Shown: positions 1,449 to 17,859 of the stretch, one piece after another
How positions within the stretch are numbered: position 1 is the first letter of the stretch
Layout: each line of letters begins with the position of its first letter
DNA from: a virus
Lineage: Duplodnaviria > Heunggongvirae > Uroviricota > Caudoviricetes
IMG/VR virus record: IMGVR_UViG_2563366969_000006
Length of the DNA stretch: 19,074 bases
Strand: one strand, 5' to 3'
Position numbers and translations under genes: made by a program
The notes under the pieces: generated by a model
Seen by the model: only the letters and a program-made list of their open reading frames with translations
Told to the model about the DNA's origin: nothing
The model's database searches: none

Positions 1449-1476
1449 TTAAAAACAAGGCCGCGAAAGCGGCCTG
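1449..1476 (-). terminator. Rho-independent terminator closing the large operon
   Basis: On the minus strand, stem GGCCGC / GCGGCC (1459-1474) with a GAAA-type loop, followed by TTGTTTTT, 8 nt after the stop of the 104-aa gene. Confidence 0.6.
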
Positions 1477-1483
1477 TGACATG

Positions 1484-1798
1484 TCACGATAGTTCCGTTT
1501 TGTTGAATTCAATTATATCAAGGTCAGAACTTTCGTAATCCTTACCGAATAAAGCAAAACATATCGCGTCAAGTTCTCTCTTATGTTTGGACGCCCGATC
1601 ATAATTACCACCCCAACAGCAAATGAATCCACCAAGTACTGCTGATTCAAAAAGTAATGATGCTGCATCAATATGTCTGAACCAGGAGTCTATAAGTAAA
1701 GCAGAGAGTGATATTAATGTTCCCCACCCGCCAATCCTTCTCCATTTCTCAGCTTCATATTTAAGAGAAGCAATATATTCAATTTTATCTCTCGTCAT
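1484..1798 (-). CDS. Small membrane protein (104 aa, two predicted transmembrane helices), last gene of the large operon; function unknown
   Basis: ORF with TGATG stop-start overlap to the upstream gene; two hydrophobic segments (IGGWGTLISLSALLIDSWF and ASLLFESAVLGGFICCWGG); lower GC than upstream genes. Confidence 0.6.
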   Translation of the reverse strand: MTRDKIEYIASLKYEAEKWRRIGGWGTLISLSALLIDSWFRHIDAASLLFESAVLGGFICCWGGNYDRASKHKRELDAICFALFGKDYESSDLDIIEFNKTELS

Positions 1799-4554
1799 CA
1801 GTTCCCCACCGCCTTTCCAAAATCCGGTGCTCTACGTGGCGCAATAGCACCCGGTTCCCACCAACTCGTTATGTCGAACTCCCGTTGCGCGCGGTCCCTT
1901 ACTCGATCATTGTAACCAGGGTTTGCCATCTCCTGAAGTTGTTGCAATATCAGGTGATTGGTTATCGCTTTCGCATACCACAGGTTTGCGAATGGGGTGA
2001 TCATGCGGGCTGTTTTCAGTGCATCGGCACCGAATGATGTTTCTTCACCCTGTAGAGCCTTCTGTGGGTTAGTAATCAGTAATTTTGTTAACTGCTCTGC
2101 AAAGCTCAACACAGGGCCACCCATAGTGGCACCGATGCTGGAGCCATATTGCGTATGGTCCTGGAAAATAAAATCACCGTAGATACCGAACGAACCACCT
2201 TTCAGTAAAGCCTGAACCCATGTGGTTGGTTTTGTCATATCCAGCGGATCATTACCATTTAACAAACTGTTCATCTGGATCGCAAACATACCAGCAAGAG
2301 TTGTTCCCCCGATATATGAGGCCAGAAATTTAATGGCCGGAACGGTGTCCAAATCCCGTGTTCTGTTAACAAGTTGCCGAAATCCAGCAAATGGGGTTGT
2401 TTTGAAGAGCATGAAGCTCTTCATTAACTCGCCAGCATCATCACGGGCATATGTATCAATACCCGTAGCGGTGGTCACAGCATTGGTCATCTCACCGTGC
2501 GTAATTCCCAGCAATTTCTGGGCTGCTTCAGCGCGTGCATTACGAATCATGCGCGTGATGGTCTGCTCAGCCTCAGCGTCGAATGCTTCTTTCATCCGTT
2601 TCAGGCGTTCTGGAGGGAGATCTCCAAGGGCTGCCAGTGCCTTTTCACTCCCGGCACGAATCCGGGTAATACGGTCTGCCATAATGTCGGCTATTACGTT
2701 ATCGGGCACAGCGTAAATCGCGTCTGGCGTCATCCCCATATGCCCGGCAGTAGTCATCGGCCTGAGTTCTGCCGCTGCCATGATGGCCCAGTCCTCATTG
2801 CTCCATCCCTTGTTAGCCAGAATGGTTTTATCGGTTCCTTTCATATCGTCCAGCGTCTTAAATTTTCTGGTCAGCTCGCCAATGTTTTTGTACATCAGGA
2901 GACCAAACGACGCTTTGTTTGCGCGGTCCATAGCGATCAGCCCGGACCACTTCAGTGTCTTCTCTGCGAACCAGCCAGTTATGCCGCGAGACAAGTCAAA
3001 CCCGCCCATTTTCGAAACCACAGCAGCATGTGAATCCACCAGCAGACCGAGTTCAGCATTCGCCTTTTTGGCATCTCCACTAAACAGGTTTTTGATAGTG
3101 TTAACGGAAAGCCGCATTCCACCACGGGTAAAGCCCAGCGCCTGCGCATTTGCCCGCATAATTGCCTGGTCGCTGGTTGCTGTCAGTACGCTGGTGCCAA
3201 GCATGGCGCTGGTCATCAGGTTACGCAGACCACCAACTGCTGAAGAGAACACACTCGATGAAGCGACACCATTTAGGCCAGCCATTGAGTTGAACATACG
3301 GGCAACTAATTTGGCCTCATCCTCCATTTCTTTTTTGCGTTTCCCGCCTGTTACTGCGCGCTTATAGATGCGATCCAGTACCAGGGAAAAGTTTCTTTCG
3401 GCGTCCGGACCAAAGGCTTTAACGACGCCCAAATCCCTGGATGATGATTGCAGGTGCGACATCATCACCCCCACCAGCGGCTGCTGAGTGTATCGTTCCA
3501 TATAGGCGAAGTGTGACTGCGCATCCTTGAACGCCATCACCCTGTGCTGAGAACCACGGCTCTTTATTCCTCCGGCTCCCATAAATGTACCAGGCTCAAT
3601 TTTGTTTGCCCCATCAGTGGCCTTCGTTTCAAAGATCGCTTCCAGTGCCTGACGGTACTCGACGTCATTCATAATGCTGCCGTCAGGATTAACGTAATTG
3701 CTGCGATCCTGCGTGTTGTAAGCGTCATCAACCCATTTCTGGCGGGCAAACTCAATCGGTGGCTGGCGACCTGAAAGACGTGCTGTAGCTTGCTCTGCCA
3801 CTGGTAACGATGCCAGCCATTCTTCGCGCCCGGCATTGCGAATAAGGTCAGCATCATCCACATATGGCGTATGCCAGTCTTCTCGCAGGCCTATGTCAAA
3901 GCCATTGTCGTTCATCTCATGACGAACACGGCCTGTTACATCCTTCCAAATCTGTGCAATTTTCTTCGCCAGGGGATTCCCGGTATCTTCGCCATATATT
4001 TCTTTCAGGATCTGGAGTTGTGCAGACTTTGCCGCCTGCCTGTCGAATACACTCCGAAACCGCTGCTCTCCAAGCGCCCTGCTCTGCTCGAAGAATTTGC
4101 GGACGTCATCACCTGCTTTTAGAAGTTCAGCACTGAGCTGACGGGACCAGTCCTGATATGCCCCAATTGCAAGTTCTTCAGCAGAAGTAACGGAGATATC
4201 AGCTTTGTCTCTCGATCGTCGGCCAGCAAAAATAAACTGCTGCAAATTAACAGGTGTCTGCTGATCAGGCGGGATGTTAGCATCGAGAGTGTCAGTAATT
4301 TTACTGATGGCGATCGCATTCTGGGCAACACGCTGTCTTTTCTTGTACACATCATGAACCACACGCTGGCGTACCAGTTCTGCTGCATCCATGTATGTTT
4401 GAGCATCAGGAATACCACTTTTGCCTTCTTTGGCATTCTTTCTGTGCACATGCTGCACAGCTTCTTTGATACGATCTTCAATATTTTTCAGCTCATCAGC
4501 CTTTGGCTGGCGACCAAGTGTCTGCGCAATAGCTTCCACACATGCCTGTTTCAT
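1798..4554 (-). CDS. Large hypothetical protein (about 918 aa), Gly/Ala-rich hydrophobic stretches, no NTPase motif; possibly internal-virion/ejection-like
   Basis: Long ORF. Likely start is the ATG at 4552-4554, preceded by GAGGAA and in a TAATG overlap with the upstream stop, rather than the unsupported ATG at 4575. No Walker A found on reading. Confidence 0.75.
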   Translation of the reverse strand: MKQACVEAIAQTLGRQPKADELKNIEDRIKEAVQHVHRKNAKEGKSGIPDAQTYMDAAELVRQRVVHDVYKKRQRVAQNAIAISKITDTLDANIPPDQQTPVNLQQFIFAGRRSRDKADISVTSAEELAIGAYQDWSRQLSAELLKAGDDVRKFFEQSRALGEQRFRSVFDRQAAKSAQLQILKEIYGEDTGNPLAKKIAQIWKDVTGRVRHEMNDNGFDIGLREDWHTPYVDDADLIRNAGREEWLASLPVAEQATARLSGRQPPIEFARQKWVDDAYNTQDRSNYVNPDGSIMNDVEYRQALEAIFETKATDGANKIEPGTFMGAGGIKSRGSQHRVMAFKDAQSHFAYMERYTQQPLVGVMMSHLQSSSRDLGVVKAFGPDAERNFSLVLDRIYKRAVTGGKRKKEMEDEAKLVARMFNSMAGLNGVASSSVFSSAVGGLRNLMTSAMLGTSVLTATSDQAIMRANAQALGFTRGGMRLSVNTIKNLFSGDAKKANAELGLLVDSHAAVVSKMGGFDLSRGITGWFAEKTLKWSGLIAMDRANKASFGLLMYKNIGELTRKFKTLDDMKGTDKTILANKGWSNEDWAIMAAAELRPMTTAGHMGMTPDAIYAVPDNVIADIMADRITRIRAGSEKALAALGDLPPERLKRMKEAFDAEAEQTITRMIRNARAEAAQKLLGITHGEMTNAVTTATGIDTYARDDAGELMKSFMLFKTTPFAGFRQLVNRTRDLDTVPAIKFLASYIGGTTLAGMFAIQMNSLLNGNDPLDMTKPTTWVQALLKGGSFGIYGDFIFQDHTQYGSSIGATMGGPVLSFAEQLTKLLITNPQKALQGEETSFGADALKTARMITPFANLWYAKAITNHLILQQLQEMANPGYNDRVRDRAQREFDITSWWEPGAIAPRRAPDFGKAVGN

Positions 4555-6614
4555 TATGGGTTCCTCAAGAAGCACGCTGCTGCTACAGAATAAACCTTCG
4601 ATTCGTTCTGGACTGTCTTAATCTGTTCATCCAACTCAGCCAGGAGATCAGAAAGTTTTGTCGGGTTTCCGGTTTCCGGGTGAGCTATAGTCAGCTCAGG
4701 ATTGGCAACAGCCATGTCCCTGGCAGCCATAAGGTCATAGCTGTTGGATGAGAGAACCTGCCCTGTATCTGGATCAACGCTGATGTCCCCTCTGTGTTCA
4801 CCAGCCGATGAGAAAGCACTTTCAGCACGAGGGACAGGCGATTCACTAATTGGCTCTGATGATGTTTCGTATCTGACACCATTTTCTTCAAAAACCTTTT
4901 GTATTTCATGGTATTGCTCTTGGTAAGTATCAGATATATCTGATCGCAATGGACCATCAAGCCCTCGCGCCATCCCCCCAACATTTACAGGCTGACCATC
5001 ATTAAGTTGCCTGTATGCTTCATCCATGGCGTCAACATGGCTGTTGATGCTCTCATTGCTGGTATGAAGCACTGGTGACGATTCAATATCGTAATGAAGC
5101 CCCTCATTCAAAATGTGGGCTGCATCAATATCGCTTGGTTTTATTCTTTCCCTCGCCCGGATACCAAAAACTTTTTCTACTGCGGCTTCCAGTTTCATAT
5201 TGCGAAGACGCATACTTACGAGTAACCGTAACTGCTCAGGTGTAACGGTTCCAACCTGAATACCACTGTATCTGAATATATAGGCTTTAAAACCTGAAAT
5301 AATTTTTTCCCATGATGAAACGCTTGTCTTTAGAGATGGATTTACTGCATGTGCGGCAACTTCTTCAGCGTACAACCACTCAGGATATGTTTCAGGGTAC
5401 TCACCCCTTTTCTTATATTCATAATATTGTGACATCCCATATGCAAATTCAGGATAGTCAGAATGCTTGTTTGCAGATTTAAGTACAGCATTAGCTAGCT
5501 TTCTGGCCTTCCAGTCAGGGTAATGGCGCTGCTCAAGATGAAGCGCCTCGTGATGAAGGGTTTCTAACAGTTCTTCATGGTCTTTTAATCCATTAATATT
5601 TATTCTTATTATTGGTTCTTTTCCGGAAGCTACTGTCACATGACCTTTATTCAGAAGTATTTCTCCATCACTATTTTTTATTGCTGGTTCATTAATAAGT
5701 TCTATTACTCCTGAATCAGATAAATCACGAACCATTGACTCAATGTTACCATCAGGAGATTGCTGATAATGTTCACCAAAAGTTGATTTTATTTCTTCTG
5801 CAGAAATGTTCGACTCTGTACCATCATGGTTATTATGGGTAGTCAGGTGATGAACGCCACCAAAGACCCCGCCTAAAACGGCATCGACTAACATCGCCTG
5901 ACCGTCAAATACCCGGTACTGTTTTGCCATCTCCGTGTAGCCTTTTTCCTCCAGTGTTGCGCCTACTGAGTAACGGTTCAGTCCACCGAATCCGGTGTTG
6001 ATTGCCACACCTGAGGCAATGCGCGTTGCCAGTGTGGTGCCGACGGCAGCGGGTAAGGCCATACCCACAGCATTGAAAAGGCTCTGCTGCGTTGCCAGGT
6101 TACGCGCTGTAGCCTCGTCTACTCCCTTCCCTTTAAAATCCTGATAGGACTGCTCATACGTAGAACTGAAGGCTGTAGCAGCGCCGATGAGCGGACCACC
6201 AAACATAGTTGTTCCGATTGCAGGAACAAATTTACCAAGCTCATTTAATACCTCAGCCGCCATTCCCTGGCTGCCTGCATCAGGCTTCACATAGCTGCGG
6301 GCATCCTGTAACTGTTTTCCGATCGTGTCGTATGTATCATTCAGTGTTTTGTCAGCATCAGGGAACATCTCCCGAAAAATATTAACTGTCGGTGCCACGT
6401 CTGCGGTAAATGCCGGATCGCTAATCAGACGCTTGCTGAATCCGACGGCAGACTGCGCGAGACCGAGAGCCCCCTCCGCCACGCCGCTCAAAAGTGCAGT
6501 ACCTGAACCCTGGAAGGGAGTCGGATCGTAGTCTTCTGGCCTTGCTGGGTTGGCAACTGTTTTGTCGTCAATCCATGCCTGACCTTCTGGAGCCAAAGAA
6601 AAAACATCAGACAT
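4554..6614 (-). CDS. Large hypothetical protein (686 aa) with an HExxH (HEALH) zincin-like motif and Gly/Ala-rich hydrophobic region
   Basis: Long ORF; TAATG overlap with the upstream 843-aa gene; GAGGG ribosome-binding site; ETLHHEALHLEQRH encoded around 5534-5560; no P-loop. Confidence 0.75.
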   Translation of the reverse strand: MSDVFSLAPEGQAWIDDKTVANPARPEDYDPTPFQGSGTALLSGVAEGALGLAQSAVGFSKRLISDPAFTADVAPTVNIFREMFPDADKTLNDTYDTIGKQLQDARSYVKPDAGSQGMAAEVLNELGKFVPAIGTTMFGGPLIGAATAFSSTYEQSYQDFKGKGVDEATARNLATQQSLFNAVGMALPAAVGTTLATRIASGVAINTGFGGLNRYSVGATLEEKGYTEMAKQYRVFDGQAMLVDAVLGGVFGGVHHLTTHNNHDGTESNISAEEIKSTFGEHYQQSPDGNIESMVRDLSDSGVIELINEPAIKNSDGEILLNKGHVTVASGKEPIIRININGLKDHEELLETLHHEALHLEQRHYPDWKARKLANAVLKSANKHSDYPEFAYGMSQYYEYKKRGEYPETYPEWLYAEEVAAHAVNPSLKTSVSSWEKIISGFKAYIFRYSGIQVGTVTPEQLRLLVSMRLRNMKLEAAVEKVFGIRARERIKPSDIDAAHILNEGLHYDIESSPVLHTSNESINSHVDAMDEAYRQLNDGQPVNVGGMARGLDGPLRSDISDTYQEQYHEIQKVFEENGVRYETSSEPISESPVPRAESAFSSAGEHRGDISVDPDTGQVLSSNSYDLMAARDMAVANPELTIAHPETGNPTKLSDLLAELDEQIKTVQNESKVYSVAAACFLRNP

Positions 6615-9145
6615 TATTCAACCCTCACGACAATAGCTTTATTGGTTCTGGGATCTGTTGCCCAGCGTCCGCTACCATTTACAAGCCGATACCGGTTATT
6701 GCCGATATTAACTGGCGTGAAATTTGACACTGCATTTACGTTAAGTCCGGCATCTTTCAGTGCTTGTTTCGCAGATGTGGTATAGCGATCTTTGAAAGTA
6801 GATTTATCCATGCCAAAAGGCATTACAACGTCGCCGCCATTAAAACCATTGTATATACCGCCAGTAGCATACTTCACGGCATCAGCTACAATGTCTGTAT
6901 CAGGCATACTGGTTCTTACCGTAGAGGCATCACCAGATTGATAAGCTATTCCTGCGTAAGCGGCTTTGAAAAGGCTATAACTGATCTGGCGTAACTGCGG
7001 GTTACGGGCAAATGCATTACCTACCTGTTCGTCGAAAGCGTCTTTCATCTTATCTTCGCTCGGCAACTGTACCGGAGTTATGCCCGCATTCTTCATGGCC
7101 TTCGTCGGATTCAGTAGTTGGTCGCCGGAAAGAATAACCTTTGCAACGTCGTACTTGTTCATCGTCGGCTTATACCCGATGAACTGACTATATGGGATCG
7201 TCGGCCTGGTGTTGTCGTACTGGTTATCCGGCGTGCCCAGCAGCAGCGCAGAATAGGCTGTTGCCGCACTGTTCGGAGCAATTACAGATGCCACCTGCCG
7301 TATTGCTGGCGCAGGCAGCTTCTCCCCCATGCTCTGCAACAGTTTAATTGTCTGGTCAACGTTCTGAGTGCCGCGCACCTGCTGTGCCAGCGCAGCCGCC
7401 TCTTCACTGTTGAGGAGTGGGGCATTAATTCCCAACGCGCGTAAGCTTTCCTGCGACGAGAAACGGTTAGCCACCTCGGCAGTGATGTCGTCAGGGTTGT
7501 TGCTGGTGATCGGCTTATAGGCTCCGATTTCCACCGCTGCACTAAACGGATTATTCTGCCTCTGGGTTATTACCTTCGTGGCTGCCGCCGATACCCGGTC
7601 GAATAACTCCGCACGAGACGCATACCCCTCCCCTGTCTCACCAGTATCCGGGCGTAATTGCTCAACATATGCGGTAATGCTGCTTGTCGGCATGTTGCGG
7701 AAAGAGCCTATATACTGTCCGGCGATCTGCAAATTTCTGAACTCGGTATATCGCAGGTTTCCTTCTCTGACACCATAAGCAGCAATGAACTCACCCTCAC
7801 CAGGCGGGTTAGGAAATTCAACGCCACGCATATACGCAGCCGTTGCATCGCGAACCCGGCTTTCGAGCATCGTTCTATATTCAGCCTGCTGCTGTCTGGC
7901 TAATGCATCCGTCTGTCGCAACACGCTGGCCTGATCTGATTCACTTAAAGCATCGAACCAGGCTACACCGGTATAACGTTTATTTTTTGTCGGTAGCTGA
8001 GAAAGCCCCAGTGCGGCACTAACGCCAGCGGCCAATTGCTGATCACTGTACGGCTGACTGCCTTGCTCATGATGAATAATTGCTTTGCACAGAGATTTCA
8101 GTGTGTCAGGATTTGATGCGTCAAGCGGCTGGTCAGGAGTTACACCGAGCTGAGCACATACTGCCCGTATATAAGCATCAGTTTTATTATCATCACTGGC
8201 CGGTGCCCAGCGATTAATTATTTCGCTGATGGTGTCATAACCCTGACGCTGATACGACAGCAAATTGCGACCAAGCGCGCGAATACCGTGTTCAGGGGTT
8301 TCGAATTTGGCAAAGCGACCATCATCACCAGTCTGCCCAACCCACGGATTAGTTTTGCTGTATTCAAGATTGCCGGGGTTATTGTTGCGTATACCGCGGG
8401 TACGATCGGAAGAGCCACTATCTGCTACAGCACGGCGAGATCCAGCAGCAGTATCGCTTAACTCGCCATTTTGCTGTCTTACCTGAAGATAGTTTGCTCC
8501 AATAGCATTTTGAGCAGTTGCTTTTGCTGTTGCTTCTTTAAACTCGATTTTCTTGGCCTGGATTTGCTCGTCGCTCCAGCCATGCGCAATACCGTAATCC
8601 TCAATTTGCTGGAAAGTTTGCGTATTAGCCAATATGTATGCTGCGTTGTCGCCATATAATGCTGAGGCATTTTTACCATTATTCAGCAGTGTCGCCTGAA
8701 ACTGGCCTTCTTCGTAGGCATTTATTTGCCCTATCTCGTACCTCCCGGCCTGCGTAGCGAACTGAATACGCTGCTGCTGCGCCTGCTGCATGAAAGCATT
8801 ACGAGCCTGTTCATCCGGCAGCGACATAGCCAGTTGTTCGATCTGAGCATCAAACTGCTGTGTATACTCATGGCCTTTTCCAATAGCATTTTTCCCTTTC
8901 AGGTTAAGCAATCCTGTTTCAGGATTATTCAGCAGATCACTGCCTGTCTGACTGAGTTTAAGGGATGCCTCCTGAATCAAGGCAATATTGGCACGCTGTT
9001 TTGCCTGACCAAAAACATCAATTGCCTCTGCCCCTGCCCGAACAAAAGCATCACCAATACCTGGCTGAGAAAACGTCTGCAAGCCTGCTGACTGAACTCC
9101 ACGGCTCTCAACCTGACGTCCGGATACTGTTGGTACGACTGGCAT
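6614..9145 (-). CDS. Large hypothetical protein (843 aa), Gln/Ala-rich, with a conserved-looking block GIRNNNPGN...W.G...G.FA.F (possible peptidoglycan-hydrolase-like or virion-associated domain; unverified)
   Basis: Long ORF with a strong AGGAGG ribosome-binding site 6 nt upstream of the ATG; motif block encoded around 8155-8395; no P-loop. Confidence 0.75.
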   Translation of the reverse strand: MPVVPTVSGRQVESRGVQSAGLQTFSQPGIGDAFVRAGAEAIDVFGQAKQRANIALIQEASLKLSQTGSDLLNNPETGLLNLKGKNAIGKGHEYTQQFDAQIEQLAMSLPDEQARNAFMQQAQQQRIQFATQAGRYEIGQINAYEEGQFQATLLNNGKNASALYGDNAAYILANTQTFQQIEDYGIAHGWSDEQIQAKKIEFKEATAKATAQNAIGANYLQVRQQNGELSDTAAGSRRAVADSGSSDRTRGIRNNNPGNLEYSKTNPWVGQTGDDGRFAKFETPEHGIRALGRNLLSYQRQGYDTISEIINRWAPASDDNKTDAYIRAVCAQLGVTPDQPLDASNPDTLKSLCKAIIHHEQGSQPYSDQQLAAGVSAALGLSQLPTKNKRYTGVAWFDALSESDQASVLRQTDALARQQQAEYRTMLESRVRDATAAYMRGVEFPNPPGEGEFIAAYGVREGNLRYTEFRNLQIAGQYIGSFRNMPTSSITAYVEQLRPDTGETGEGYASRAELFDRVSAAATKVITQRQNNPFSAAVEIGAYKPITSNNPDDITAEVANRFSSQESLRALGINAPLLNSEEAAALAQQVRGTQNVDQTIKLLQSMGEKLPAPAIRQVASVIAPNSAATAYSALLLGTPDNQYDNTRPTIPYSQFIGYKPTMNKYDVAKVILSGDQLLNPTKAMKNAGITPVQLPSEDKMKDAFDEQVGNAFARNPQLRQISYSLFKAAYAGIAYQSGDASTVRTSMPDTDIVADAVKYATGGIYNGFNGGDVVMPFGMDKSTFKDRYTTSAKQALKDAGLNVNAVSNFTPVNIGNNRYRLVNGSGRWATDPRTNKAIVVRVE

Positions 9146-9241
9146 TAGTAACCTCCTATTTTGAATCGGGAGTCAGAATTCATAAAACCTGAGTTAGATA
9201 ACATTGGCGTCCCTCTGCTTTGATGCTGTACCAGCGATTCA

Positions 9242-9448
9242 TTACTCACCCCCCGATGCAAAACCATTCTGATTAAGCCAGGCGTTTACGGCATGTCTGA
9301 CAATCTGCGCCACGCCTGGTAATGGCTGATCAGGGTGATTGTTCACATGGTCGATTCTGTACTGCTTAAGGCGCATCACGGTCTGTGCATCCAGATGAAC
9401 GGAACCACCTCTGACATCGCCTGTGTTCAGGTCGTTAATACAATTCAC
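9242..9448 (-). CDS. Small hypothetical protein (68 aa) leading the large operon; possible regulator
   Basis: ORF just downstream of a candidate promoter and upstream of the 843-aa gene; the GAGG ribosome-binding site is unusually close to the ATG, so the start is uncertain. Confidence 0.4.
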   Translation of the reverse strand: MNCINDLNTGDVRGGSVHLDAQTVMRLKQYRIDHVNNHPDQPLPGVAQIVRHAVNAWLNQNGFASGGE

Positions 9449-9480
9449 AGCAATTTCCTCTTACTGACTAAACTATGCAC

Positions 9481-9509
9481 ATTATTGATCTGAAAAAGTG
9501 GTAGATAAA
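9481..9509 (-). promoter_or_regulatory. Candidate sigma70 promoter for the large operon (minus strand: -35 TTTATC, 17-bp spacer, -10 AATAAT)
   Basis: Hexamers read from the sequence between the upstream terminator and the 68-aa ORF; not experimentally supported. Confidence 0.3.
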
Positions 9510-9547
9510 CATATTTCTATCACAAAAACAGATTGATTGATTTCAGC

Positions 9548-9573
9548 CAAAAAAAAGCCGGATTGCTCCGGCT
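9548..9573 (-). terminator. Rho-independent terminator separating the replication/SSB/ProQ block from the large operon
   Basis: On the minus strand, stem AGCCGGA / TCCGGCT with a 4-nt loop, followed by a run of 8 T. Confidence 0.7.
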
Positions 9574-9813
9574 CTGTGCTTACTTCTGGTAGTTACGCCA
9601 TACTGATTTCCCGATCCCATCTATCCCCATTTCTTTTTCAGTGCGTTTAAGCGACCGTTTCAGGTCTTCTAAATTATCCGGTTGCTTCGGTGGCCTCTGC
9701 GCCTTCCTGGAACATTCCAGTCGTCGCATTGATATGTAATACCGTTCCTTGTCAGTTCCCCAACTGCATTACTTCACCCCATCGCGCCGCCGCTCTTCGG
9801 TACAGGGTTTTAG

Positions 9814-10230
9814 TTAGCCTCCGACTCTTCCGTAGTGCTGTTCTGGTGGATTCACATAGCCCCTTTCTTGCAGGTATTCGCGAATATCAGACATCAGGAG
9901 ACGGTTAACCGTGCTCTTGTCTTTTCTCCGGTAAAGGCGTCTGGTGATCATGAAGTAGTTAGCAATGATCTCCGGTATATCCCTGACGCTGATACATGCT
10001 GTATGCTGGTCAATAGCTTCAATCATCTCTTCACGAGTTACAAAAGTCTGGCGTAAACGAGTGATCACACCATGTACATCTGAATGATCATTTATACGCT
10101 TATTTTGGCGCTTCGCGCTCTCGACTGTGACACTGACAACAATGTCAACTCTTTGTTTTTCCGCAATTTCATCCACAATGTGATCACCTGCACGGCGACC
10201 ATGTGCGTGATCATTTCTTACTATTTCCAT
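9814..10230 (-). CDS. Hypothetical protein (138 aa), His-rich N-terminus
   Basis: ORF with GGAGGAG ribosome-binding site; overlaps the 3' end of the ProQ/FinO gene by 20 nt; no family recognised. Confidence 0.5.
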
Positions 10231-17737: not shown

Positions 17738-17859
17738 ACCTCAGCGTCCTCTACTGTAGTGGCTGTGCCAGCCCGTCGAGGTATACGGTTTTTCGGGAGC
17801 GACCCTAGACACAGCTTTTTCTTTCGTCGCTCAAAGTCTACTACTGTATACTCAACCAG

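Follow-up and report, generated by a model that had tools for sequence, protein, structure and literature searches.

The IMG/VR record IMGVR_UViG_2563366969_000006, a tailed-phage stretch of 19,074 nucleotides (the window, meaning this whole stretch), encodes on its minus strand an 843-residue protein with a compact block around the motif RNNNPGN. What does this block do, and what kind of element carries it? The original prediction, made from the letters alone, had tentatively linked it to virion-associated cell-wall hydrolases or structural domains, and supposed that a catalytic block would act on the envelope during entry or abortive lysis. Judged by its sequence relatives, the block is the front half of a known peptidoglycan glycosidase domain of about 130 residues. 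The explanation that best covers the whole locus, and one that we consider likely, is an entry lysin of the Enc34 type within an ejection protein of the epsilon15 type, carried by a satellite-like island. The argument leans on the following features, numbered along the window.

6614..9145, minus strand: 843-residue open reading frame (ORF), homologue of epsilon15 gp15; RefSeq WP_001580973.1, labelled 'hypothetical protein'
8201..8401, minus strand: the block first pointed out, TRGIRNNNPGN...IINRWAP, 67 residues (residues 249-315), placed by exact peptide mapping
8012..8401, minus strand: the whole PHA02564 / Enc34-type peptidoglycan glycosidase domain, approximately residues 249-378
8369..8389, minus strand: RNNNPGN motif, R253-N259, a near-invariant hallmark in the family alignment
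8207..8209, minus strand: codon of W313, equivalent to Enc34 Trp79, a substrate-positioning aromatic residue (HMMER alignment to 7q47; role from PMC8943055)
8171..8173, minus strand: codon of Y325, equivalent to Enc34 Tyr95 (HMMER alignment, and invariant in the 37-sequence alignment; PMC8943055)
8066..8068, minus strand: codon of E360, equivalent to the catalytic Glu131 of Enc34 (HMMER alignment to 7q47)
8063..8065, minus strand: codon of Gln361, directly after E360 (HEQG in the window allele)

The quoted 67-residue peptide is present exactly, as residues 249-315 of the minus-strand ORF; the plus strand of the interval first assigned to it, 8155-8395, holds stops throughout. That interval caught the right feature but missed its first two codons and ran 15 codons beyond the peptide. 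The peptide covers the N-terminal half of the domain only, with the catalytic Glu360 lying outside both peptide and interval. Its conserved look proved genuine. When 17 full-length gp15 homologues of phage, prophage and island origin are aligned, the mean column conservation of the block is 0.90, with 38 of 67 columns invariant, against 0.72 for the whole protein; only 11 of the first 140 columns are invariant, and the block is the best-conserved segment of the 843 residues. The surroundings had been called low-complexity, which holds for a disordered Ser/Ala/Gly linker in front of the domain (residues 236-249, predicted local distance difference test score below 50), whereas the flanks are otherwise ordinary conserved protein.

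Searches against PDB chains place the domain in a family, at similarities well above chance. The whole protein matches 9vvp (Gp29) with E=4.2e-39 and 7q47 with E=1.8e-16 (HMMER), and the domain alone reaches 2.6e-40 and 2.1e-18 (phmmer). Entry 7Q47 is the catalytic domain of ORF39, the endolysin of Hafnia phage Enc34 (Cernooka et al. 2022, PMC8943055), which belongs with M4Lys to the NCBI-CDD family PHA02564. The HMMER alignment to 7q47 pairs Enc34 W79, Y95 and E131 with W313, Y325 and E360 of the window protein; in Enc34, these three superpose on the catalytic residues of GH73 and GH23 (PMC8943055). Within a 37-sequence alignment, G270, G287, R289, A290, Y298, A314, P315, N320 and Y325 are invariant, and R253, N254-N256, P257, N259, W268, T322, G334, E360 and G362 are at least 90% conserved. 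Metagenome-wide searches yielded 270 domain instances. Every RNNNPGN position is at least 97% conserved among the ungapped sequences, the Glu360 position is Glu in all 263 ungapped sequences, and the W313 position is W, Y or F in 267 of the 270. An attribution of 7Q47 to Pae87 of Pseudomonas phage JG004 (Pfam Muramidase PF11860, Glu29/Glu46) was considered and rejected, Pae87 being 7Q4S/7Q4T; since 7Q47 is the Enc34 endolysin, the catalytic scheme of Pae87 does not apply.

The PHA02564 family is described as all-helical, with helices arranged as in the lysozyme alpha-lobe but permuted in their order, and as distant kin of GH73 and GH23 (PMC8943055). The window domain likewise has an all-helical fold like the lysozyme alpha-lobe, superposable on 7Q47. 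The original prediction proposed a comparison with lysozyme and transglycosylase folds; the domain has neither in canonical form, but is a permuted, alpha-lobe-only relative of GH73 and GH23 (PMC8943055). Membership in GH73 (PF01832) itself, which takes a profile match above the gathering threshold and an alpha+beta fold with a beta-lobe, was not found. With regard to activity, the Enc34 construct ORF39dC lyses Gram-negative murein and its authors propose an N-acetylglucosaminidase (PMC8943055). The M4Lys dTMD construct of Salmonella phage BSPM4 also degrades murein, with a loss of N-acetylglucosamine in mass spectrometry that indicates an N-acetylglucosaminidase (PMC7143992). By family membership, the window protein would be expected to cleave murein too, with RNNNPGN probably lining the substrate groove. 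The suspicion of a cell-wall-hydrolase-like domain was therefore well placed, given the matches to 7Q47 and to Gp29 of 9VVP and the retained W313/Y325/E360 signature. It was to be dropped if no hydrolase matched and the fold was unrelated; a hydrolase family matches, and the fold is related.

Standard profile libraries give a different impression. Pfam-A and NCBIfam contain no match for the 843-, 686- and 925-residue proteins of the module described below. With the domain alone, Pfam at E<=10 returned only a sub-threshold hit to PF01832 Glucosaminidase (13 bits, E=0.15) and NCBIfam only noise; the SLT profile PF01464, with its E-S catalytic motif, does not match the window protein in Pfam even at E<=10. 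The Enc34/PM2-P5-type domain has no model in Pfam-A (2025 copy) or NCBIfam (release 20), so proteins carrying it stay 'hypothetical' in standard annotation, and the Pfam search first proposed as a check would on its own have looked negative. PHROG families are more informative. The 843-residue protein matches PHROG 992 ('head protein') over its full length with E=1e-289, and residues 244-363 match PHROG 7182 ('tail injection transglycosylase') with E=3e-22, as well as families labelled endolysin.

The domain is widespread and occurs in several settings. Its profile retrieves 19,216 clusters at 50% identity (E<=1e-3) from 1.84 billion representatives. Of 265 sampled proteins, 112 consist of the domain alone, 81 carry it at a total length of 200-349 residues, and 72 are large proteins, where it is internal in 47, C-terminal in 17 and N-terminal in 8. 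Enc34 ORF39 and M4Lys are lysis proteins of about 220 residues, encoded in lysis cassettes, which combine the domain with a C-terminal transmembrane anchor. In contrast, the window protein holds it internally (residues 249-378 of 843), has no transmembrane segment and presumably acts from outside. Corticovirus PM2 protein P5 is a predicted member with the same enzyme domain and triad (bioRxiv 10.1101/2022.07.18.500477), which explains why many matches of about 140 residues are named 'structural protein P5' or 'virion protein'. PM2 P5, virion-associated in PM2, and the stand-alone P5-like ORFs of about 140 residues in Pseudomonas and other Gammaproteobacteria are single-domain proteins of tailless membrane-containing phages and prophages, unlike the large ejection protein of the window. 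The domain is also present in 'virion proteins' of the BFVD collection.

The protein around the domain indicates where the enzyme would work. In tblastn searches of phage genomes, it is 78.9% identical to gp15 of Salmonella phage epsilon15 across residues 1-843, with further full-length matches in Enterobacter phage BUCT554, phiV10, SPN1S and other Uetakevirus members. Homologues of gp15, gp16 and gp17 follow one another in the same order and on the same strand as in epsilon15. There, they come after gp11 and gp12, homologues of the T7 tail tube, and the internal virion proteins gp13 and gp14, which is where the T7 core/ejection genes lie; gp14 homologues of E. coli prophages are annotated in RefSeq as T7 gp14 family. 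When one genome per species was taken, 12 of 13 species-level loci carried the homologue within a prophage module of portal, capsid, gp11, gp12, gp13, gp14, gp15, gp16 and gp17. Epsilon15 gp15 itself (NP_848223, 842 residues, 'head protein' or 'putative lytic transglycosylase') carries this domain in the corresponding position and likewise has gp16 and gp17 behind it. Its transglycosylase label, derived from an HHpred match to SltB, is not the best one because the fold is Enc34-type. Epsilon15 gp15 belongs to a complete virion module, following gp11-gp14, whereas the window copy lies in an island that has no gp11-gp14, portal or capsid genes.

Sister proteins offer a second line of evidence. 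The gp15 of the E. coli ETEC4069 prophage (WP_242378806, locus L005 3795-6416) is near-identical over its first 140 residues and then carries a Pfam SLT domain at residues 233-339; the same swap to SLT (GH23) is seen in the Superficieibacter electus prophage (locus L019). An SLT domain in the same slot of a sister gp15 indicates that the slot holds a murein-cleaving module. The two enzymes differ in type: SLT PF01464 is a lytic transglycosylase yielding 1,6-anhydro-N-acetylmuramic acid, whereas the Enc34 type, permuted and limited to the alpha-lobe, is a hydrolase and probably a glucosaminidase. The window protein would do the same job as T7 gp16 (GH23/SLT, catalytic E37) and as the SLT-bearing prophage gp15, with which it also shares the slot. 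In T7 gp16, the transglycosylase at the N-terminus works in the periplasm during entry (PMC8954989). A review of podovirus ejection proteins that includes epsilon15 reports swaps of lytic domains between gp15-like and gp16-like proteins (PMC8954989). The Enc34-type domain is also found at the N-terminus of T7-gp16-type proteins of Kayfunavirus annotated 'internal virion protein D / ejectosome'. Gp29 of 9VVP is 98-99% identical to such an 'internal virion protein D / ejectosome component' and comes from Kayfunavirus coliphages (e.g., CLB_P1, vB_Eco_ZCEC02). It shares about 60% identity with the window protein over residues 249-403, with the domain at the extreme N-terminus of 1295 residues, in the position of the T7 gp16 SLT domain, which it replaces there, and the remainder unrelated to the window protein; no paper on 9VVP was found in the literature. 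A wall-cutting Enc34-type domain inside a podovirus DNA-ejection protein is ordinary in itself. A virion-associated wall hydrolase acting at entry, one of the roles first suggested, is supported by the full-length homology to epsilon15 gp15, the gp15-gp16-gp17 order and the SLT swap.

The sequence of events that we propose follows the T7 gp16 paradigm and the biochemistry of the family. The domain is inserted between an N-terminal region (residues 1-248) and a C-terminal region (residues 379-843) of gp15, which homology and gene order place with gp16 and gp17 among the internal (core/ejection) proteins of Uetakevirus podophages. The protein would be packaged in the capsid. Upon adsorption, gp15 would be expelled through portal and tail into the periplasm. 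Glu360 would there cut the glycan strand locally, with Tyr325 and Trp313 positioning the glycan; family data favor an N-acetylglucosaminidase. The cut would let a trans-envelope DNA channel formed by gp15-gp17 pass the murein layer. With lower confidence than for these other steps, the island most likely acts as a satellite that places gp15-gp17 in virions of a Uetakevirus helper.

The element itself is framed and marked by two features.

120-138 and just right of the window (locus L001 31238-31256): att repeats, a 19-bp direct repeat
17748-17815, minus strand: int-alpA RNA motif RF02996 (Rfam, 46.9 bits), downstream of the integrase gene and before the coiled-coil gene

The two copies of the repeat TTGGAGCGGGCGAAGGGAA, one at the 3' end of a tRNA-Gly gene and one at the opposite border, are the att sites of a 19,137-bp island. 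In minus-strand order, it encodes the integrase, the int-alpA RNA motif, a 267-residue coiled-coil protein, AlpA, AntA and Bro-N proteins, an Icd-like protein, DUF4222, a DUF927 primase, SSB, ProQ/FinO, a 138-residue ORF and a frameshifted PerC, then a terminator and the gp15-17 operon. Pfam matches identify a tyrosine integrase and AlpA. No capsid, portal, terminase, tail, gp13/gp14 or lysis genes were found in the island, and its sole virion-related genes are gp15-gp17 and the ORF in the gp18 slot. By gene content, the layout is that of a satellite of the Gram-negative phage-inducible chromosomal island (PICI) type: an integrase with att repeats, AlpA and a primase are present, and capsid, portal, terminase, tail and lysis genes are not. 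The likeness to Gram-negative PICIs extends to the int-alpA motif, the Icd-like and DUF4222 genes, the DUF927 primase and the att repeats at a tRNA gene. The difference lies in the virion-related cargo, which here consists of podovirus ejection proteins that would depend on a helper. Phage satellites remodel capsids, redirect packaging and take tails; we know of none described that supplies DNA-ejection proteins, and no description of a PICI or satellite with epsilon15-type or internal virion/ejection-protein cargo was found in the literature.

The island occurs repeatedly. Of 5,426 complete E. coli genomes, 44 contain the junction at which the island backbone meets gp15, and the same architecture is found at a second site, yicC/dinD, with an integrase that is only 29% identical. 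Alleles of gp16-17 are at least 95% identical in 37 island genomes and 98.8-100% identical in 20 sampled records; the nearest prophage alleles are about 80% identical to them, and no genome has two copies. Between the two island lineages, the ratio of nonsynonymous to synonymous substitution (dN/dS) is 0.19 for gp15, 0.016 for gp16 and 0.07 for gp17, and all three genes are intact. The sole exception among the 13 species loci is Pectobacterium zantedeschiae, where a DUF927 primase and SSB, but no virion genes, lie upstream. Its gp15-17 homologues are 49%, 42% and 73% identical to those of the island, and its gp15 keeps the lysin domain and its W/Y/E residues (KNNNPGN, RWAP, AAY, HEN).

Comparison with resident prophages shows that the island gp15 is a mosaic. 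Up to residue 510, it shares 93-96% identity with the gp15 of VR50-type E. coli prophages (about 95% outside the lysin domain and about 86% within), whereas residues 511-843 are only 23-24% identical to that type and 83% identical to epsilon15. Island gp16 and gp17 are likewise epsilon15-type and 24-30% identical to those of the VR50-type prophage. From locus to locus, the type of gp16 and gp17 changes together with the C-terminal third of gp15, which suggests that these parts interact. Second gp15-like loci occur in 17 of the 37 island genomes. Uetakevirus gp12-gp14 genes are present in 535 of the 5,426 genomes, with four island strains within a sample of 60 of their matches. A Uetakevirus prophage resides in at least 18 of the 37 island genomes versus a background of 9.6% (odds ratio 8.9, p=2e-9, a value that carries no phylogenetic correction). 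Strain AH19D088 has as its second locus a complete prophage of the VR50 type, whose gp15 is 93% identical to that of the island over residues 1-510 and 24% beyond, with 24% for gp16 and 27% for gp17.

The simplest reading of these sequence relations would be a satellite whose gp15 docks into virions built by the helper and brings along a different distal ejection set. Taken further, the island might own a replacement ejection apparatus, in which the helper-like N-terminal half of gp15 docks while the foreign C-terminal third and gp16/gp17 inject through a periplasmic/inner-membrane machinery unlike that of the helper virions, a tentative proposal to which we give rather less than even chances. 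Were it true, island particles might get into cells that are closed to the helper type; lysogens of the helper would be one example, and these are just the cells that a satellite needs. The replacement set could also spoil the helper's own particles.

Several points weigh against the entry-lysin account in whole or in part. Bond specificity is unsettled within the family, as the M4Lys data hint at endopeptidase activity too and the glucosaminidase assignment of Enc34 is by structural analogy. Neither the window nor the 12 kb on either side contains homologues of portal, capsid or gp11-gp14; with these usual partners of gp15 absent from the island, incorporation into virions would need a helper phage. 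Epsilon15 gp15 and gp17 have been placed in the tail hub rather than the internal core, according to Guichard et al. 2013 as cited in PMC12391199, so the 'ejection protein' label derives from annotation and from a gene order shared with T7-like core genes. A hydropathy scan of gp15-gp17 gave no segment above 1.4 and none that is strongly hydrophobic, and thus does not indicate a membrane-crossing member among the three. Finally, the window allele has Gln361 in place of Asn next to the catalytic Glu, and activity could be lowered as a consequence.

The mosaic gp15 also lends itself to another explanation, in which the operon serves interference or defense, either through a chimeric gp15 that poisons helper virions or through proteins that block ejection by incoming Uetakevirus phages. 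PICIs carry cargo harmful to competing or helper phages. A gp15 that is helper-like up to residue 510 and foreign thereafter, together with gp16 and gp17 only 24-30% identical to the co-resident type and an island without a gp14 homologue, would suit such a function. We regard it as a live but less likely alternative: PADLOC matches no known defense family, a complete and matching epsilon15-type set under purifying selection exceeds what a dominant-negative needs, and the island is enriched rather than depleted in strains with Uetakevirus prophages.

The residue at position 361 raises a narrower doubt, namely that the domain has become a weakened or dead structural or murein-binding module that anchors or shapes the ejection complex. 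Among the 263 ungapped family sequences, Asn follows the Glu in 257 (98%) and Gln in one only, making N361Q a rare substitution beside the catalytic residue. However, Glu360, Tyr325, Trp313 and RNNNPGN are all intact, the domain is the most conserved part of a gene with low dN/dS, Asn to Gln is a conservative exchange, and both the other island lineage and the phage alleles read HENG where the window allele reads HEQG. A loss of catalysis therefore appears quite improbable, and we retain the view of an active entry lysin.

It is more doubtful still that gp15-gp17 are a functionless leftover of a decaying Uetakevirus prophage that recombined with an integrative island. The island is indeed a patchwork, with an ORF chimeric between P1 pacA and ant, the frameshifted PerC and, in one lineage, a frameshifted SSB. 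Against this, the 843-, 686- and 918-residue ORFs are intact in both lineages at dN/dS of 0.02-0.19, the architecture recurs at a second att site and, in a version 49% identical, in Pectobacterium, and the operon is cleanly bounded by terminators behind a conserved PICI leader. Least credible of all is an enzyme for host or abortive lysis at the end of the cycle: both characterized family members, Enc34 ORF39 and M4Lys, are endolysins and some matching PHROGs bear that label, but the domain is internal to a virion-protein homologue with no signal peptide, signal-arrest-release segment or C-terminal transmembrane segment found, epsilon15-type phages keep holin, GH19 endolysin and spanin genes in a separate cassette, neither holin nor spanin is encoded by the island, which also lacks any PADLOC match, and nothing supports the abortive lysis first suggested.

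For annotation, the gain is that a RefSeq 'hypothetical' protein can be named an ejection protein whose murein glycosidase domain is of the Enc34/PM2-P5 type, with E360 as the catalytic Glu. The domain family is already described and structurally solved, and the carrier protein is close to a known phage protein; the island context is the less ordinary part and worth following up. The exchange of SLT and Enc34-type domains in near-identical gp15 proteins amounts to a natural experiment on interchangeable entry lysins. If an island satellite does bring ejection proteins of its own, DNA delivery would have to be added to the steps that satellites take from helpers. An island and a VR50-type prophage in one strain, as in AH19D088, would then make a tractable E. 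coli system and show which parts of the ejectosome must match the virion and which the recipient cell.

The rest of the operon consists of the following features.

9554..9575, minus strand: intrinsic-terminator-like hairpin upstream of the operon, at the end of the preceding unit (9-bp stem and T run)
9242..9448, minus strand: 68-residue leader ORF with upstream promoter region, shared with other E. coli PICI-like islands
4554..6614, minus strand: 686-residue homologue of epsilon15 gp16, second gene of the gp15-gp17 module (BLASTP; PHROG 1145)
1798..4554, minus strand: 918-residue homologue of epsilon15 gp17, a virion structural protein (89% identity; PHROG 684, E=2.5e-295)
1484..1798, minus strand: 104-residue ORF with one hydrophobic segment (hydropathy), last gene of the operon, in the slot of epsilon15 gp18
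1458..1475, minus strand: intrinsic-terminator-like hairpin directly after the 104-residue ORF, at the operon end (7 pairs, 6 of them G-C, and T run)

The order is thus 68-residue ORF, gp15, gp16, gp17 and 104-residue ORF, with terminators on both sides (1484-9575, minus strand). The start of gp17 is that of RefSeq; the mechanical ORF with a GTG start extends to 4575 and gives 925 residues. Neither the gp16 nor the gp17 homologue had a useful match among PDB sequences. A counterpart of the 104-residue ORF, 82% identical, follows gp17 in a prophage of Ca. Erwinia dacicola (locus L008).

According to BLASTP, the gp16 homologue is 83% identical to epsilon15 gp16 over residues 1-265 and 74% over residues 480-686. 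Between them, residues 266-479 (about 210 residues; 5178-5819, minus strand) form a different cassette, which carries the HExxH motif HEALH at residues 355-359 (5538-5552, minus strand). The cassette has no Pfam match and a weak one to PHROG 10499; going by its motif, it could represent a metalloprotease-like part inserted into this ejection protein.

The leader at 9211-9562, comprising the terminator, an AT-rich promoter region and the 68-residue ORF, is about 88-90% identical to leaders of other islands in six sampled records (e.g., L006 13001-13346). In those E. coli int-alpA-primase islands, it precedes a fusion gene of a ClpP-like prohead protease and major capsid protein, with tail-related fragments. 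The shared leader in front of a capsid gene elsewhere indicates that the gp15-17 module occupies the slot that related islands use for virion-related cargo. From these alignments, the leader seems to be a common regulatory gateway behind which the virion-derived cargo varies.

In the Pectobacterium island (L015 4772-7367), QueC-like and nucleoside 2-deoxyribosyltransferase-like genes lie between the primase and gp15-17, which may be DNA-modification or anti-restriction cargo. At the other end of the E. coli operon, about 1.3 kb from its terminator to the att repeat (139-1457) hold no annotated gene and only short ORFs; the one ORF tested had no family match.

A last feature concerns packaging.

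9814-10230 (DNA core approximately 10010-10230), minus strand: 138-residue ORF, a chimera of P1 PacA and P1-family Ant/Icd-region fragments

Residues 7-68 of this ORF are about 65% identical to P1 PacA and residues 59-127 about 71% identical to the P1-family Ant/Icd region; kinship to the small terminase of epsilon15 was considered and rejected in favor of this pacA/ant chimera. The underlying DNA matches the P1 pac site, cleavage region included, at an estimated 85% or so over the homologous core (81% mean column identity when the non-homologous flanks are aligned as well). The pac-like core retains four of the seven TGATCA/G Dam hexamers, at 10208, 10181, 10085 and 10062. The island might be packaged by a P1-type pacase, or the sequence may be a relic of pac. 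At 19.1 kb, the island is about half the size of the 39.7-kb epsilon15 genome, so that two copies would about fill one head.

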